This document shows positions 42,555 through 46,899 of a stretch of DNA of 64,000 bases, one piece after another. The translations under genes and the position numbers were made by a program. Within the stretch, counting starts at the first letter, position 1. Each line of letters starts with the position of its first letter. Source of the DNA: a virus. Lineage: Duplodnaviria; Caudoviricetes. The stretch covers positions 4,825 through 68,824 of IMG/VR virus record IMGVR_UViG_3300033121_001345, one strand, 5' to 3'. A model generated the notes under the pieces. The model was not told where the DNA came from. It worked only from the letters and a program-made list of their open reading frames with translations, and ran no database searches.

Positions 42555-42971
42555 ATGAAACAGAAAATAGAGTCCGCCATTAGAGAAACACTTGTTATAA
42601 CAAATAAACAAAGTATTTCAAGGGCAGTAGAAAAAATACTAATTACAACAGAACAGGAGCAAGAAATCACCGATGTTTCTGTTTGTAAATGTAAAGATAA
42701 AATAGGAGAAACGAAACTTTTGTGTTGCAATGCAGTATTAGTGGATAAATGGATTTCAGTAAACGACAGATTGCCTGAAAATGAAAATCCATTCTCTAAT
42801 GATGTCGTTCTTTTTTGGAGCAAGAAACATGGCTTTTGGATGATAGGATGTTATGATTATGAATTTTCAGACTGGACAAGACTTCCGTGGGAGAAAGGAT
42901 ATAAGTCATTGTCATTTGATGATGTTACACATTGGATGCCTTTGCCGGAACGTCCGACAGATTGCGACTAA
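42555..42971 (+). CDS. DUF551-domain protein
   Basis: WISVNDRLPE...VTHWMPLPERP; its stop TAA is part of the first attC-like inverse core. Confidence 0.85.
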   Translation: MKQKIESAIRETLVITNKQSISRAVEKILITTEQEQEITDVSVCKCKDKIGETKLLCCNAVLVDKWISVNDRLPENENPFSNDVVLFWSKKHGFWMIGCYDYEFSDWTRLPWEKGYKSLSFDDVTHWMPLPERPTDCD

Positions 42972-43096
42972 CAGTATTCCGCTATGAGTAGTGGCGGATT
43001 TAGAACTACTCACTTTAAATTTAGCACAAATGTTAATAGAAAGCACAAATGTTAAATTACCACTTCAACCGCCTTTACTTATAGCGGATATTAGCG
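42966..43096 (+). repeat. attC-like site 1 (131 bp; core variant A|TTAGCG)
   Basis: GACTAAC + 5 nt + TCCGCTATGAGTA..GGCGG / CCGCC..TACTTATAGCGGA + T + ATTAGCG. Confidence 0.75.
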
Positions 43097-43434
43097 GTAG
43101 TACTTCTTGGGACGAATGGTTATCTGAAACGGAAACCAAACTCAAAGAATTAGGATACAGAAGATACGTTCAAAATCATAAAAACGAAGATTTCTGTTAT
43201 TGGAAAACTTTTAAGAATGGTGAAGATAAAACCTATCAGATAGGTATATTATTTTATGATTTTAGAAAGTATGCAGACAGTGACCCAGACGCAAATAGAA
43301 TAGGAATAATGTATGAATGTAGGATTTTAGATGAGGGTAGAATTGATATGTCTGTTAGTAAAAACATTGATTTGGTAGAGTTTGAAAATATGGCACAAAC
43401 TTTTTACGTAGCAATGTCGCAGTATTGCCACTAA
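43030..43434 (+). CDS. Cassette A hypothetical protein; start codon lies inside site 1
   Basis: Track ORF 42991-43434; in-frame ATG at 43030; no Met for about 75 codons after the crossover. Confidence 0.7.
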   Translation: MLIESTNVKLPLQPPLLIADISGSTSWDEWLSETETKLKELGYRRYVQNHKNEDFCYWKTFKNGEDKTYQIGILFYDFRKYADSDPDANRIGIMYECRILDEGRIDMSVSKNIDLVEFENMAQTFYVAMSQYCH

Positions 43435-43514
43435 CGGTTTGCGTATAAGAGATGTGGCACTTATATGAAGGTTAAAATCAAGGCACAAAGCCCAATGTGC
43501 CATATCTTTTATAC
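43429..43514 (+). repeat. attC-like site 2 (collapsed right end)
   Basis: CACTAAC + GGTTT + GCGTATAAGAGATGTGGCAC / GTGCCATATCTTTTATACGC; no separate G|TT core. Confidence 0.7.
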
Positions 43515-43583
43515 GCTGGCACGGATAGTTTAAGATAAAGTTCAATCGGCGCAGAAAAGAAAACAATAAATAATTTTTTAGCG

Positions 43584-44072
43584 ATGGCAAAATATATAGC
43601 ATTAACACAGGGGAAACAAGCATTAATTGATGATGATGTTTTTGAGAAATACGGAACAGTTCCTTTTCACGCCTCAAAGGTGAAGGATAAGTTTTATGCA
43701 AGAACATCAAGAACGCTTTTGCCTCATTCAATTAGAACCTACTTGCACCATTTGGTTATTGGTTTGCCATCAAATAAACAATGGATGATTTGCTTTAAAG
43801 ATGGAAATACCTTGAACTGCCAAAAAGAAAATTTGCAATACATACGAAAATCAGATAACACACAGAAGCATTCAAAATTGCAAACCGAAAGAAAGAAAAG
43901 TTCAAAGTATTTAGGAGTAACATTTAGACCAGCACACTTTAAAGCACGAATAAAATTTGATGGCAAAACAATAAACATTGGAGAATACAAAACAGAAGGA
44001 GAAGCTGCAAAAGCATACAACGATTACGCTAAAAAACTATTTGGAGAAAAAGCAAAACTTAATTCTTTATGA
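43584..44072 (+). CDS. Cassette B: HNH-AP2 family protein with degenerate HNH
   Basis: LTQGKQALIDDD, LHHLVIG, CFKDGNTLNCQKENL (His of the usual DH missing), SSKYLGV...AAKAYNDYAKKLFGEKAKLN. Confidence 0.85.
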   Translation: MAKYIALTQGKQALIDDDVFEKYGTVPFHASKVKDKFYARTSRTLLPHSIRTYLHHLVIGLPSNKQWMICFKDGNTLNCQKENLQYIRKSDNTQKHSKLQTERKKSSKYLGVTFRPAHFKARIKFDGKTINIGEYKTEGEAAKAYNDYAKKLFGEKAKLNSL

Positions 44073-44138
44073 GGGCAGAAAAAATTATTTATTGTTTTCT
44101 AACGAAAAGTTAAATCGGAGAACGAATGCAGTGCTTGC

Positions 44139-44236
44139 GTATAACGTTTTGCAGCTAACAGAAGTGTATGCTTGTAAGAACTTCTGAATTAAAAACAAAT
44201 GCTTGTAGCAGCCATTTTTGTTAGGTGCTGTTATAG
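44139..44236 (+). repeat. attC-like site 3 (98 bp)
   Basis: GTATAAC + GTTTT + GCAGCTAACAGAA / TTTTGTTAGGTGC + T + G|TTATAG. Confidence 0.8.
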
Positions 44237-44255
44237 GTAGTAAAATTTACGGAAT

Positions 44256-44483
44256 ATGAAAATAGAAACTAAAGAAAATCAGATTATTTTGAAAGAAGTG
44301 TATAACTCAATTACACTTGAAACACGAGAAGGAAAGCAATTACATATCTGTATGAGAGATATGGGATTTGAAATGAAGATTGATGATGGTGATTGGCACT
44401 TGCTAACTAACGAATCTGATTTTCTGATTAAACCAAAAGGATTTCAATACAGAGAGCCAGACTTTCCAGTAGCACAAGGGTAG
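44256..44483 (+). CDS. Cassette C hypothetical protein (75 aa, own ATG)
   Basis: ORF track; lies wholly inside cassette 44231-44622. Confidence 0.75.
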   Translation: MKIETKENQIILKEVYNSITLETREGKQLHICMRDMGFEMKIDDGDWHLLTNESDFLIKPKGFQYREPDFPVAQG

Positions 44484-44496
44484 TAAATTTTATTCC

Positions 44497-44628
44497 CTAT
44501 AACGTTTTGCGGCTATGCTTAGTGCCGTATTTAAAAGACTAAGCCAATCTTAAACAACAAAATTAATATGGAAAATACAGGATTATTTAACACAGAAGGT
44601 AAGGCATTGAGCATAGCCGATGTTATGG
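44497..44628 (+). repeat. attC-like site 4 (132 bp)
   Basis: CTATAAC + CGGCTATGCTTAGTGCC / GGCATTGAGCATAGCCG + AT + G|TTATGG. Confidence 0.85.
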
Positions 44629-44777
44629 CTATGTTGCCTACTACAATGATTAACAGAGTTGAAGTGATTGACGAAAACGGGAGAAGCTACGTTAATTGGA
44701 AGCCAACTAACAGAACTGAATTGCAAGTGCAAGACAACGGTAGAACGCTAAAAGTATTTGTGTCGCAAGGCAATTAG
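44568..44777 (+). CDS. Cassette D hypothetical protein (69 aa; first 18 aa encoded by site 4)
   Basis: ORF track; KALSIADV is the translated right arm of site 4. Confidence 0.7.
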   Translation: MENTGLFNTEGKALSIADVMAMLPTTMINRVEVIDENGRSYVNWKPTNRTELQVQDNGRTLKVFVSQGN

Positions 44778-44831
44778 CCATAACGGACGAGTATTTGCGC
44801 TCGTTTTAATGGCGCAAATACTTTGTTGCCA
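44778..44831 (+). repeat. attC-like site 5 (compact, 54 bp)
   Basis: CCATAAC + GGACG + AGTATTTGCGC / GCGCAAATACT + TT + G|TTGCCA. Confidence 0.85.
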
Positions 44832-44888
44832 GTAGTAGCGGTTGATTAGGATAAAACTAAATTAGAAACGAAAATAAAAATAGCAATT

Positions 44889-45212
44889 ATGGCACAGATA
44901 CACGATGATTTTGAAAAGGCAATACTGCAATGCGGATTTAAAAAAGATTATAACAAGCAGTATGATTACCAAATGTATGATGGAACTTGGTTTTATAAAC
45001 TAAATTTTGAGGGATACGCTTATGTGCTTTACAAAGAGATAAATATTTATGTAAAACCACTTATGAGCCTTTTTAAAATCTACAACAAATTTGCAAAAGG
45101 AACGGCACAAATAGGATTGCATTACGCTGTGCCTATTGCACACTTTAGAGAACCGCAAAAGCTAATTGACATAATTACTATTTTAACCGATAAACTTGAT
45201 GAAAAGGACTAA
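44889..45212 (+). CDS. Cassette E hypothetical protein (107 aa, own ATG)
   Basis: ORF track; inside cassette 44826-45349. Confidence 0.75.
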   Translation: MAQIHDDFEKAILQCGFKKDYNKQYDYQMYDGTWFYKLNFEGYAYVLYKEINIYVKPLMSLFKIYNKFAKGTAQIGLHYAVPIAHFREPQKLIDIITILTDKLDEKD

Positions 45213-45224
45213 CGTAGCTATTAC

Positions 45225-45355
45225 TGGTAACGGCTACGGCTTTGCGTTAGTGCCGTAATAGAATTACTAACGCTCAATTTAAAACAAAAGTAAAATGGAA
45301 GAACAAAACTTGATTAAACAACCGAACTCGGCATTGCACAAAACCGCTGTTAGTG
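45225..45355 (+). repeat. attC-like site 6 (131 bp)
   Basis: TGGTAAC + GGCTA + CGGCTTTGCGTTAGTGCCG / CGGCATTGCACAAAACCG + CT + G|TTAGTG; one extrahelical base. Confidence 0.85.
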
Positions 45356-45837
45356 GCAGTGCTTTGAGATACAACGGTGGTAAATTACGTTGGTCGCTTG
45401 TTGACTTTGATGCCTTAGAAGATATGGTTAAAGTCTTGGAATTTGGGGCGAAGAAATACGCTGATAATAACTGGAAGAAAGGTCTTAAAACGCCTGAGAT
45501 TTTTGAAAGTATGATGAGGCACATGACTGCATATATGCGTGGTGAAGATATTGACACTGAAAGTGGGTTACCACACACAGGTCATATATTATGTAATGCG
45601 ATGTTTTTGTCATATATGCAGCGTTTTAAGCCCGACTTTGATACAAGGCACAAAGACAAAAACAAGCGGTTAGGTGCTGTTATAAGCCGTTATTCTGATG
45701 CCGATATATTTAGGTTTTCAGATGGATGGTGGATTACAACGTATAGTAAGGAGCAAAAGAGATTTATAAAGTTAATAGGTAGCTTCAAAACTAAAGATGA
45801 AGCAAGGGCTGAAATTCGTTCACTTAATGGCTTATAA
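45295..45837 (+). CDS. dATP/dGTP diphosphohydrolase (DUF5664-like) fused in frame to cassette G ORF
   Basis: RYNGGKLRWSLV, VLEFGAKKY..NNWKKG, RH..AY..GEDIDTESGLPH..H..CNAMFL; extra 53-aa tail after an internal half site. Confidence 0.85.
   Translation: MEEQNLIKQPNSALHKTAVSGSALRYNGGKLRWSLVDFDALEDMVKVLEFGAKKYADNNWKKGLKTPEIFESMMRHMTAYMRGEDIDTESGLPHTGHILCNAMFLSYMQRFKPDFDTRHKDKNKRLGAVISRYSDADIFRFSDGWWITTYSKEQKRFIKLIGSFKTKDEARAEIRSLNGL
45669..45685 (+). repeat. attC-like half site (right arm and core only)
   Basis: GTTAGGTGCTGTTATA is identical (16 nt) to the right arm of site 3 at 44220-44235. Confidence 0.75.
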
Positions 45838-45962
45838 CGGACGGGGCTTTGCGTTCGGGCGGATTTTGAAAAACTAAAGTTGAATAACAGATGGAGTTAA
45901 ATAGAAATACAAATGTTGAAAGTTTGCACGTCAGCCAGCCTGACGCAAAACCCATGTTATAC
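45832..45962 (+). repeat. attC-like site 7 (131 bp)
   Basis: TTATAAC + GGACG + GGGCTTTGCGT / ACGCAAAACCC + AT + G|TTATAC. Confidence 0.8.
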
Positions 45963-46646
45963 GCTGGGGCGGTTGAAAAGGCACAGATTTCCATTTATAA
46001 CGAAGATTGTTTGCAAGCATTAAAGGCAATGGCAGACAAACAATTTGATTTGGCGATAGTTGACCCGCCTTATGGGATTGGTGCAAGTAGTAAAAATTTT
46101 ATTAGGCAAGGTAAGCAAACTGGCAAAAGTATGGCTGTAAGTGGAATAAAATATACTGCTAAGGATTGGGATAATTGTGTGCCTGATAAAATTTACTTTG
46201 ATGAATTAAGGCGGGTTTCAAAAAATCAAATTGTATGGGGTGGCAATTATTTTGCTTCTTCATTACCAAATAGCAGTTGCTGGCTTATATGGGATAAGGT
46301 AACAGGCGATAATTTGTATGCTGATGCTGAACTTGCTTGGACTTCATTTGAGAAAGCTGTAAGGAAATTTACTTGGATGTGGAAAGGGATGTTTCAGCAA
46401 AATATGGCTAATAAGGAGGATAGAATACACCCAACTCAAAAGCCTGTTGCATTATACAAATGGATACTTGAAAACTATGCAGAAAAAGGAAGCAAAATAC
46501 TTGACACCCATTTAGGAAGTGGAAGCATTGCCATTGCCTGCTGGGATATGGGATACGATTTAACAGCGTATGAGGTTGATAAGGAGTATTACGATAATGC
46601 TTGCAAACGATTAGAAACGCATAAGTCTCAATTAACGCTGTGGTAG
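45891..46646 (+). CDS. Cassette H: DNA amino-methyltransferase (beta class, m6A/m4C)
   Basis: Catalytic IVDPPY precedes SAM-binding ILDTHLGSGS; HPTQKP motif. Confidence 0.92.
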   Translation: MELNRNTNVESLHVSQPDAKPMLYAGAVEKAQISIYNEDCLQALKAMADKQFDLAIVDPPYGIGASSKNFIRQGKQTGKSMAVSGIKYTAKDWDNCVPDKIYFDELRRVSKNQIVWGGNYFASSLPNSSCWLIWDKVTGDNLYADAELAWTSFEKAVRKFTWMWKGMFQQNMANKEDRIHPTQKPVALYKWILENYAEKGSKILDTHLGSGSIAIACWDMGYDLTAYEVDKEYYDNACKRLETHKSQLTLW

Positions 46647-46653
46647 CCCTTGC

Positions 46654-46741
46654 GTATAACAGTCGTATAGATGCAGTCCGTGAGGTCGGAAAACCTAACA
46701 ACTACCTGTGTGCCGAGGATTGCATCTATACTTTGTTATAA
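46654..46741 (+). repeat. attC-like site 8 (88 bp, last in array)
   Basis: GTATAAC + GTATAGATGCAGTCC / GGATTGCATCTATAC + TTT + G|TTATAA. Confidence 0.85.
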
Positions 46742-46899
46742 ATATAACTATATCTATTGTGATTATCGTTTAAAATTCGTTATTTTTGATGATAATTTAA
46801 TCAGCAATATTTTATCATAACAATAATAAAACAAAAAATTACGCTGTATTACATGGCAAATTTTGCGTATTTTTGCAACGTTACAAACAATTACAAAGC

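Follow-up and report, generated by a model that had tools for sequence, protein, structure and literature searches.

The cassette array

The DNA analysed here is a 64-kb window (the window, below, is this whole stretch of 64,000 nucleotides) of IMG/VR virus record IMGVR_UViG_3300033121_001345, a 68.8-kb record rated complete. Its subject is an array at window 42966-46748, consisting of eight attC-like hairpins and seven small plus-strand genes. The array is probably integron-like, made up of individually mobile cassettes that are the mirror image of those in a bacterial integron, and the long hairpins would be the start modules of the genes behind them. The eight sites are found within 3.8 kb and are imperfect palindromes of the form ...YTAAC - spacer - stem - loop - stem - GTTA..., with AAC and GTT boxes (one ATT, one degenerate) and stems of 15-20 bp. 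Their attC-like status rests on the boxes and on folding, while formal calls of attC sites, or of attC clusters without integrase (CALINs), rest on the IntegronFinder and HattCI models. All hairpin counts come from a strict detector (TAAC/CAAC ... GTTA/GTTG, stem score of at least 24); detection at a loose threshold was dropped, as it gave matches all over the window. The features of the array, with protein lengths in amino acids (aa), are:

42555-42971, plus strand: DUF551 gene (Pfam PF04448, E 1.8e-10), left flank of the array
42966-43096, plus strand: long hairpin S1; AAC 42970-72, arms 42978-97 and 43069-88, ATT box 43090, loop ATG 43030
43030-43434, plus strand: gene A, 134 aa, no family match
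43428-43516, plus strand: short hairpin S2; arms 43441-60 and 43497-516, GTT box degenerate or replaced
43584-44072, plus strand: gene B, HNH/AP2-like by weak matches; own leader and ATG
44139-44236, plus strand: short hairpin S3; AAC 44143-45, GTT 44230-32
44256-44483, plus strand: gene C, 75 aa; own ATG
44497-44628, plus strand: long hairpin S4; AAC 44501-03, arms 44510-29 and 44600-19, GTT 44622, loop ATG 44568
44568-44777, plus strand: gene D, 69 aa counted from the loop ATG; other ATGs at 44625 and 44631, in or just behind the box
44778-44831, plus strand: short hairpin S5; AAC 44782-84, GTT 44825-27
44889-45212, plus strand: gene E, 107 aa; own ATG
45225-45355, plus strand: long hairpin S6; AAC 45229-31, GTT 45349-51, loop ATG 45295
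45295-45837, plus strand: fused gene F-G; F, dATP/dGTP diphosphohydrolase N-terminal domain (Pfam PF18909, E 3e-30); G, a 52-aa module
45832-45962, plus strand: long hairpin S7; AAC 45836-38, GTT 45956-58, loop ATG 45891; second ATG 45954 straddles the box
45891-46646, plus strand: gene H, N6/N4 DNA methyltransferase (Pfam PF01555), conserved core from about residue 32
46654-46748, plus strand: short hairpin S8; AAC 46658-60, arms 46665-79 and 46717-31, GTT 46735-37, then directly ..TATAAC; right edge of the array

The final codons and stop of the DUF551 gene (..GACTAAC) provide the first AAC box of the array. In Tetrasphaera phage TJE1, too, a DUF551 gene (locus L075, 77-280) lies ahead of the cassette array and ends in an AAC box. 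The long-range stem of S6 is weak and differs from the minimum-energy fold, a caveat to its assignment. The S2 hairpin (window 43432-43518) has 95% identity over 87 nt to a hairpin of the 634-kb uncultured phage LR745206.1 (L001, 6001-6087), both flanks being different, and that phage carries its own array of such sites. At the position of the GTT box, S2 has a replacement (..TATACGCT leads into GGCACGG) where LR745206.1 has GTTATGT. Directly behind S8 is a 14 nt perfect palindrome, GTTATAAATATAAC (46735-46748), in which a GTT box runs straight into an AAC box, and which may represent a gene-less cassette. A tally of one hairpin per cassette fits the whole array: S1 with A, S2 with B, S3 with C, S4 with D, S5 with E, S6 with F fused to G, S7 with H, and S8 with the 14 nt palindrome.

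Putative start codons inside the long hairpins

A first-pass annotation, made from the sequence of the stretch, had described start codons within the loops of the four long hairpins. Inspection of S1, S4, S6 and S7 (131-132 bp with their boxes) confirmed that each holds an A-rich leader and an ATG in its loop (43030, 44568, 45295 and 45891), and that the frame opened by each ATG continues across the right arm and box into the gene, with PPLLIADI, KALSIADV, ALHKTAV and QPDAKPM as the arm-derived peptides. By conceptual translation, the four products begin MLIESTNVK.., MENTGLFNTEGK.., MEEQNLIK.. and MELNRNTNVESLH.., respectively. Also correct was the placing of the GTT or ATT triplet as an in-frame codon in S1, S4, S6 and a half site further downstream (GTT 45679), as was that of the near ATG of gene H, which straddles the box of S7 (ATG|TTA, 45954). 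The first 21 codons of gene A come from the loop, right arm and box of S1, and the residues of H that precede its conserved core are encoded by the S7 hairpin and box. The S1 loop contains an exact 14 nt direct repeat, AGCACAAATGTTAA (43023-43036 and 43042-43055), which produces two ATGs, and only the first is in frame with gene A.

The same annotation had divided the cassettes into those with and those without a start of their own, and this division was upheld. Gene A has no in-frame ATG, GTG or TTG for 72 codons after the box, G contains no methionine at all, and F has no usable ATG of its own, just a TTG at 45364 ahead of the ATG at 45424. Genes B, C and E have their own ATGs (43584, 44256 and 44889), situated 25-70 nt behind short hairpins. 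Gene D, which had not been mentioned, has its own in-frame ATGs at 44625 and 44631.

In the window and related contigs, a loop ATG reading at least 30 codons past the box was found in 13 of 15 long hairpin bodies (113-127 nt) but in none of 11 short ones, and the fraction of composition-matched shuffles of the long bodies with such a start was about 0.2. An independent set of 75 sites gave a similar picture, with loop starts in 24/46 long sites on the plus strand, 2/46 on the minus strand, and 1/29 short sites. The loop starts are not due to chance, and open frames of the right phase recur in many hairpins that are unrelated to one another. Site lengths in the independent set are bimodal (49-106 and 118-144 nt). 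Within the 4 kb that precede the recombinase gene described below (related loci L224-L262), lengths are again sharply bimodal and the long class is packed at 124-129 nt; this tight size suggests a length constraint on the start-bearing type. Variants of S4 differ in length by exactly one codon, none of the copies has a stop codon, and the variable columns of this family are distributed over codon positions 1, 2 and 3 as 12, 6 and 18, i.e., mostly at third positions. In predicted mRNA folds, the loop ATGs are unpaired with probabilities of 0.37-0.85, compared to 0.05-0.36 for starts at or after the box; for gene D, the ATG at 44625 is buried (0.05) while the loop ATG at 44568 is open (0.85). 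Judged from these sequence features, the loop ATG is taken to be the start used in vivo. Phage homologues of H align only from ..QISIYNEDC onward, and those without hairpins begin 3-8 residues ahead of this motif. Since the hairpin-encoded residues are outside the conserved domains, and hairpin-less homologues of H start just before the catalytic motif, these residues look like tolerated leaders that are set by the DNA site.

The loop frames could alternatively be leaders that open the hairpin by translational coupling, in the manner of ORF-11 of attI1, with the proteins themselves starting at 44625 (D), 45954 (H) and the TTG at 45364 (F). Such a role is known for ORF-11, ORF-18 and short attC ORFs (PMC8876359), and would be consistent with the in-frame box ATGs of D and H (GTG in other H copies), with the presence in one locus (L050) of gene D starting from its own ATG without a hairpin, and with the position of the hairpin-encoded residues outside conserved domains. 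However, the loop frames are fused in frame and are stop-less, so translation from a loop ATG must give an extended protein. Genes A and G are without any alternative start, the box-proximal starts are buried in the predicted stem, and long sites keep the frame almost without exception (22/24 have GTT in phase 0 or 2), making an ORF-11-type role unlikely. The evidence points instead to the long hairpin being the start module of the gene that it opens.

Hairpins are mostly inherited with the downstream gene

The comparison drew on viral contigs with relatives of genes A, C, D, E, F-G and H. Of the 74 related loci, not one carries two of the window's genes, which means that the cassettes move singly. 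For A, C, D, E and H, DNA identity between copies stops exactly at the 3′ TAAC box of the gene itself (A, ..CCGCTAAC; D, ..AGCCATAAC; H, ..GCGTATAAC; C, ..TATAAC; E, ..GGTAAC), and the hairpin behind each of these genes is different or absent in every context. The hairpins in front are mostly retained. S1 is kept in front of A in five of six contexts, with the break directly after TAAC, and in loci L002-L005 the S1+A unit stands behind four different upstream genes. S4 is kept in front of D in 8/11 contexts, while S3 is co-inherited with C (L080-L085) and S5 with E (L076/L077). In contigs from other metagenomes, S6 is found with F behind other upstream ends, and in four other metagenomes contigs break or re-join at the same TAAC boxes; the re-joins include the TAAC of C to S1+A, and the end of B to the S7 hairpin. 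Contigs from these public runs show presence and joins, not transcript ends or expression.

Among 279 strict sites, pairs of similar hairpins on different contigs shared the downstream flank only in 34 cases, the upstream flank only in none, both flanks in 46 and neither in 48. The hairpin is more stable on the coding strand in 35 of 39 sites (63 versus 11 sites in a second set, p ~1e-9), a difference due to G·T pairs, which are confined to that strand. The end boxes of gene C (44230-44238 and 44495-44503) read GTTATAGG..CCCTATAAC in the window and covary with GTTATAAGC..GCTTATAAC in L080 (~1470-1480 and ~1735-1745), suggesting that they pair in a circular or folded intermediate.

These results bear on the polarity assumed in the first-pass annotation, that of a classical integron, in which a hairpin would serve the cassette upstream of it as 3′ attC, with crossover at G|TT, and the order of cassettes would switch the translation of start-less ones. 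The boxes do resemble RYYYAAC and GTTRRRY, stop codons lie in the AAC box as they do in many classical cassettes, and it is the left arm that holds extra bases. Genes F, H and A are found behind different hairpins, with DNA identity beginning at or near GTT, and the integron integrase IntI1 uses G|TT when it recombines attC sites of phage TJE1 (PMC9892861). Nevertheless, not one pair of hairpins is linked to the upstream gene alone while 34 are linked to the downstream gene, the hairpins behind A, D, C, E and H always differ while those in front are mostly the same, related arrays end at a hairpin-less TAAC beside a recombinase gene, and the coding strand folds better. Linkage, breakpoints and coding-strand folding all suggest that the polarity is reversed here, and a classical arrangement is quite improbable. 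The long site is thus not, as had been claimed, a donation from the upstream neighbour; it usually moves along with the gene downstream, and each gene copy ends at a TAAC of its own. It follows that translation of a gene should not depend on the order of the cassettes, and the proposed translational switch is not supported, the start codon normally being in the same mobile unit as its gene.

Swapped N-termini and gene fusions

If the first codons of a gene are supplied by its hairpin, homologues would be expected to differ at their N-termini according to the hairpin in front of them. A survey of homologues, proposed in the first-pass annotation, found that this is so, with at least five versions of H, two of F and two of A. 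At least five different long hairpins precede copies of H, each in frame with the gene, and identity between the copies starts at ..AAACCC(G/A)TG|TTATACGC. F occurs behind a long hairpin other than S6 in L009, the S4 hairpin and leader head a gene other than D in L060, and a nearly identical leader is found on H in L028 and on another gene in L004. The N-terminal fusions that had been predicted are therefore present, in that the 5′ end of the gene is made up of the loop, from its ATG on, and the right arm, but the site concerned is not that of the neighbour.

Genes F and G are joined at an isolated right arm and box (45669-45684), with GTT 45679 in frame. F is found alone in L009 and L010, and G alone in L011, where it follows a long hairpin of its own; in four other metagenomes, contigs have a break at 45670, the F-G joint. 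Loss of the left arm and loop fuses neighbouring genes, as seen in F-G and in loci L043 and L049. In the latter two (L043, ~2345-2674; L049, ~2399-2764) the core of D is fused to longer, unrelated N-terminal parts, with the right arm and box alone retained. The small domain of D (..NRVEVID.NGRSY..QD.G.TLKVF) is found behind many different N-termini across phages.

A recombinase gene in related phages

No tyrosine, serine or Y1 recombinase was detected in the whole 68.8-kb record, which gave no match to TIGR02249 or PF00589. Pfam scans of 20 further proteins of the window identified a ligase, SNF2 helicase, primase-helicase, Dam and MazG, and no recombinase. In related loci (L076/L077 and L004), the TAAC of the last cassette is followed, without a hairpin and after about 70 nt, by a tyrosine recombinase gene on the same strand. 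The protein is 267-277 aa long (L076, 1896-2729; L004, 4092-4895; L217-L262) and is Xer-like, scoring 192 bits to a XerA-type model; against the integron-integrase model it scores 160 bits (cut-off 265), with the match in two pieces. The gene following the recombinase in L076 resembles, by eye, a large terminase subunit. Relatives of the recombinase are encoded by 54 viral contigs, and in the 23 loci with enough flanking sequence there are 79 hairpins in the 4 kb upstream of the gene and four in the 4 kb downstream. The stretch from the last TAAC to the start of the recombinase gene has no hairpin, is conserved in 14 of 15 related loci, and is a candidate docking sequence. The Xer-like tyrosine recombinase of these relatives is the likely catalyst, judging from its sequence and position.

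Other candidates were rejected. A small gene conserved to the right of some arrays (L025, L029, L045) encodes a protein of 75-83 aa and is not a candidate for the enzyme. Double-stranded sites of the Xer/dif type were dropped since the required second arm spacing is lacking, and hairpin ends of the IS200/IS605 type were dropped since there is no Y1 transposase. A scan of bacterial genomes with a 14-mer from one right arm gave mostly chance matches, along with five Bacteroidota-type contigs of metagenome-assembled genomes (MAGs) that showed extended matches. The genomes to which these five belong carry only Xer-type recombinases, below the IntI cut-off, and the 14-mer query supports no conclusion about a host integrase.

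That the hairpins are not sites of site-specific recombination but intergenic RNA or terminator-like structures, or palindromic repeats, and that the mosaicism stems from homologous or illegitimate recombination at short conserved sequences is very improbable. In favour of this view, the genome is without a recombinase, members of a hairpin family share 10-20 nt of stem that could support homology-driven exchange, and the strand bias in stability could reflect selection on mRNA just as well as on single-stranded DNA. Against it, the breakpoints are sharp, at a 3-4 nt box between unrelated flanking sequences, the end boxes of one gene covary, a tyrosine recombinase gene and a conserved flanking site are found in tight association with the arrays, and an integron integrase acts on similar phage sites (PMC9892861).

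Genome context and host

The minus strand of the window carries structural genes up to about 28 kb, after which the plus strand carries replication genes, including those for an ATP-dependent ligase, SNF2 helicase, primase-helicase, Dam and MazG. The GC content of the window is about 32%. Gene starts have A-rich leaders without a Shine-Dalgarno sequence. The best relatives of the gene H methylase among isolated phages are, after that of Tetrasphaera phage TJE1 (the host of which is actinobacterial), those of phages infecting Flavobacterium, Nonlabens, Tenacibaculum and Cellulophaga. The cassettes recur in metagenomes from wastewater and river; they are also present in an RNA library, which shows presence rather than transcription. 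Given the methylase relatives, the A-rich leaders, the MAG look-alikes and the recurrence in wastewater and river samples, the host of this phage probably belongs to the Bacteroidota.

A probable integron-like array in mirror image

The explanation that we favour, with a probability of about 0.75, is that of an integron-like array of individually mobile cassettes, the mirror image of a bacterial integron, in which a long hairpin is the gene's own start module. It builds on the anatomy, reading frames, co-inheritance, strand bias and association with a recombinase gene described above; the use of the loop ATG as start, the identity of the recombinase and the exact cut point are what we infer from them. 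A cassette would consist of a 5′ hairpin on the coding strand, a gene, and a 3′ ...RYYYAAC box, and cassettes would join at or just after the AAC box. Short hairpins (~45-105 nt) would be followed by the gene's own leader and ATG. Long hairpins (~118-133 nt), with an A-rich leader and ATG in the loop, would spell the first 14-22 codons in their loop, right arm and GTT box, and so act as translation-start modules belonging to the genes they start. Less often, exchange of hairpins at or near the GTT box would provide one gene with different N-termini, or different genes with one leader, and loss of a left arm and loop would fuse two genes. Catalysis would be supplied by the Xer-like tyrosine recombinase of related phages, together with the docking-like sequence beside its gene.

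Several observations weigh against this explanation. Swaps of hairpins are common: the hairpin differs in 27 of 61 same-gene pairs, and 48 pairs share the hairpin only, so that a second, less frequent exchange at or near GTT must exist and a simple unit model is incomplete. The linkage pairs do not represent independent events, and hairpin-encoded peptides were among the probes by which several loci were found. The codon-position bias is weak in the loop frames of S1 and S7, and this test clearly supports coding for S4 only. In-frame ATGs at the box in D and H, and a TTG in F, make shorter products possible (from 44625, 45954 and the TTG at 45364). There is no recombinase in the genome, and no docking-like sequence that stands out from background was found at the right end of the window's array; lacking both, this array is an orphan cluster. 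The extra unpaired bases lie in the left (5′) arm, which, given the canonical geometry of attC sites, fits the opposite, classical polarity. Lastly, IntI1 recombines the attC sites of TJE1 at G|TT mainly on the bottom strand (PMC9892861).

On balance, we lean towards a wider version of this explanation, in which phages of Bacteroidota share a widespread, mirrored capture system that uses a Xer-like recombinase and coding-strand hairpins as portable start modules, moves hairpin and gene as a unit, and, through rarer exchange at GTT, lets start-less fragments become expressed cassettes. If true, integron-type gene capture extends beyond bacterial chromosomes and plasmids with IntI, and phages of lytic type run their own mirrored version of it, trading anti-restriction methylases, nucleotide-pool enzymes and many tiny proteins of no known function. 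A start-bearing site would account for cassette expression in hosts that make no use of Shine-Dalgarno sequences, and any coding fragment joined behind such a hairpin could become an expressed, mobile gene. Gene callers, and attC finders that assume the classical polarity, would then mis-set gene starts and cassette borders in these phages.

Comparison with known systems

The array shares with bacterial integrons the individual movement of single-gene cassettes, imperfect hairpins with boxes resembling RYYYAAC and GTTRRRY, complementary end boxes within one cassette and, in its relatives, termination at a hairpin-less putative docking site beside a tyrosine recombinase gene. It differs from them in having the hairpin 5′ of its gene, on the coding strand, with the junction at the AAC box (mirrored polarity), and in having genes that point towards the recombinase gene. 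The recombinase of the relatives is Xer-like (160 bits versus the 265 of the integron-integrase cut-off), the spacer geometry is asymmetric, and many of the sites contain a start codon. Of the features that define a classical integron, the eight attC-type, single-strand-folding sites are present; the 68.8-kb record has no IntI with its specific extra domain, and the order of gene followed by attC is contradicted by linkage (34 versus 0), by the TAAC ends and by coding-strand folding. With eight sites clustered within 3.8 kb and no recombinase in the record, the array corresponds to a CALIN, the formal definition of which rests on IntegronFinder calls.

CALINs have been reported in virulent phages, including Tetrasphaera phage TJE1 and Polaribacter phage P12002L (Qi et al. 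2023, PMC9892861). Like these, the present array is phage-borne, integrase-less and of attC type, with DNA methyltransferase cassettes. The methylase of TJE1 is 60% identical to the product of gene H, despite hosts of different phyla, and in both genomes a DUF551 gene is found before the array. The sites of TJE1 are, however, short (~50-65 nt), and the methylase gene of that phage comes with a ribosome-binding site and an ATG of its own. The published account of phage CALINs reads the sites in the classical polarity and reports no loop starts, mirrored cassettes or phage-encoded Xer-like recombinase (PMC9892861), and a search of the literature found no description of mirrored cassettes or of start codons in attC-type loops.

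The closest precedents for a start signal in a recombination site are ORF-11 and ORF-18 of attI1 and the short ORFs of attC sites, where an initiation region within the site reads across the crossover and serves start-less cassettes (PMC8876359). The long hairpins are similar in having the start signal inside the recombination site and a frame that crosses the crossover. ORF-11 and ORF-18 encode separate short peptides, act by translational coupling, and lie in attI or in the attC of the upstream cassette. In the phage array the leader is fused in frame without a stop, lies in the gene's own hairpin, and is found in about half of the long sites, and so is not an arrangement of the ORF-11 kind. 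Fused cassettes of bacterial integrons form by loss of attC (PMC4670013; PMC8876359), and F-G and the fusions of L043 and L049 similarly arose by partial loss of the site between two genes. They differ from the integron examples in that only the left arm and loop have been lost, while the right arm and box remain as a translated linker that keeps the frame.

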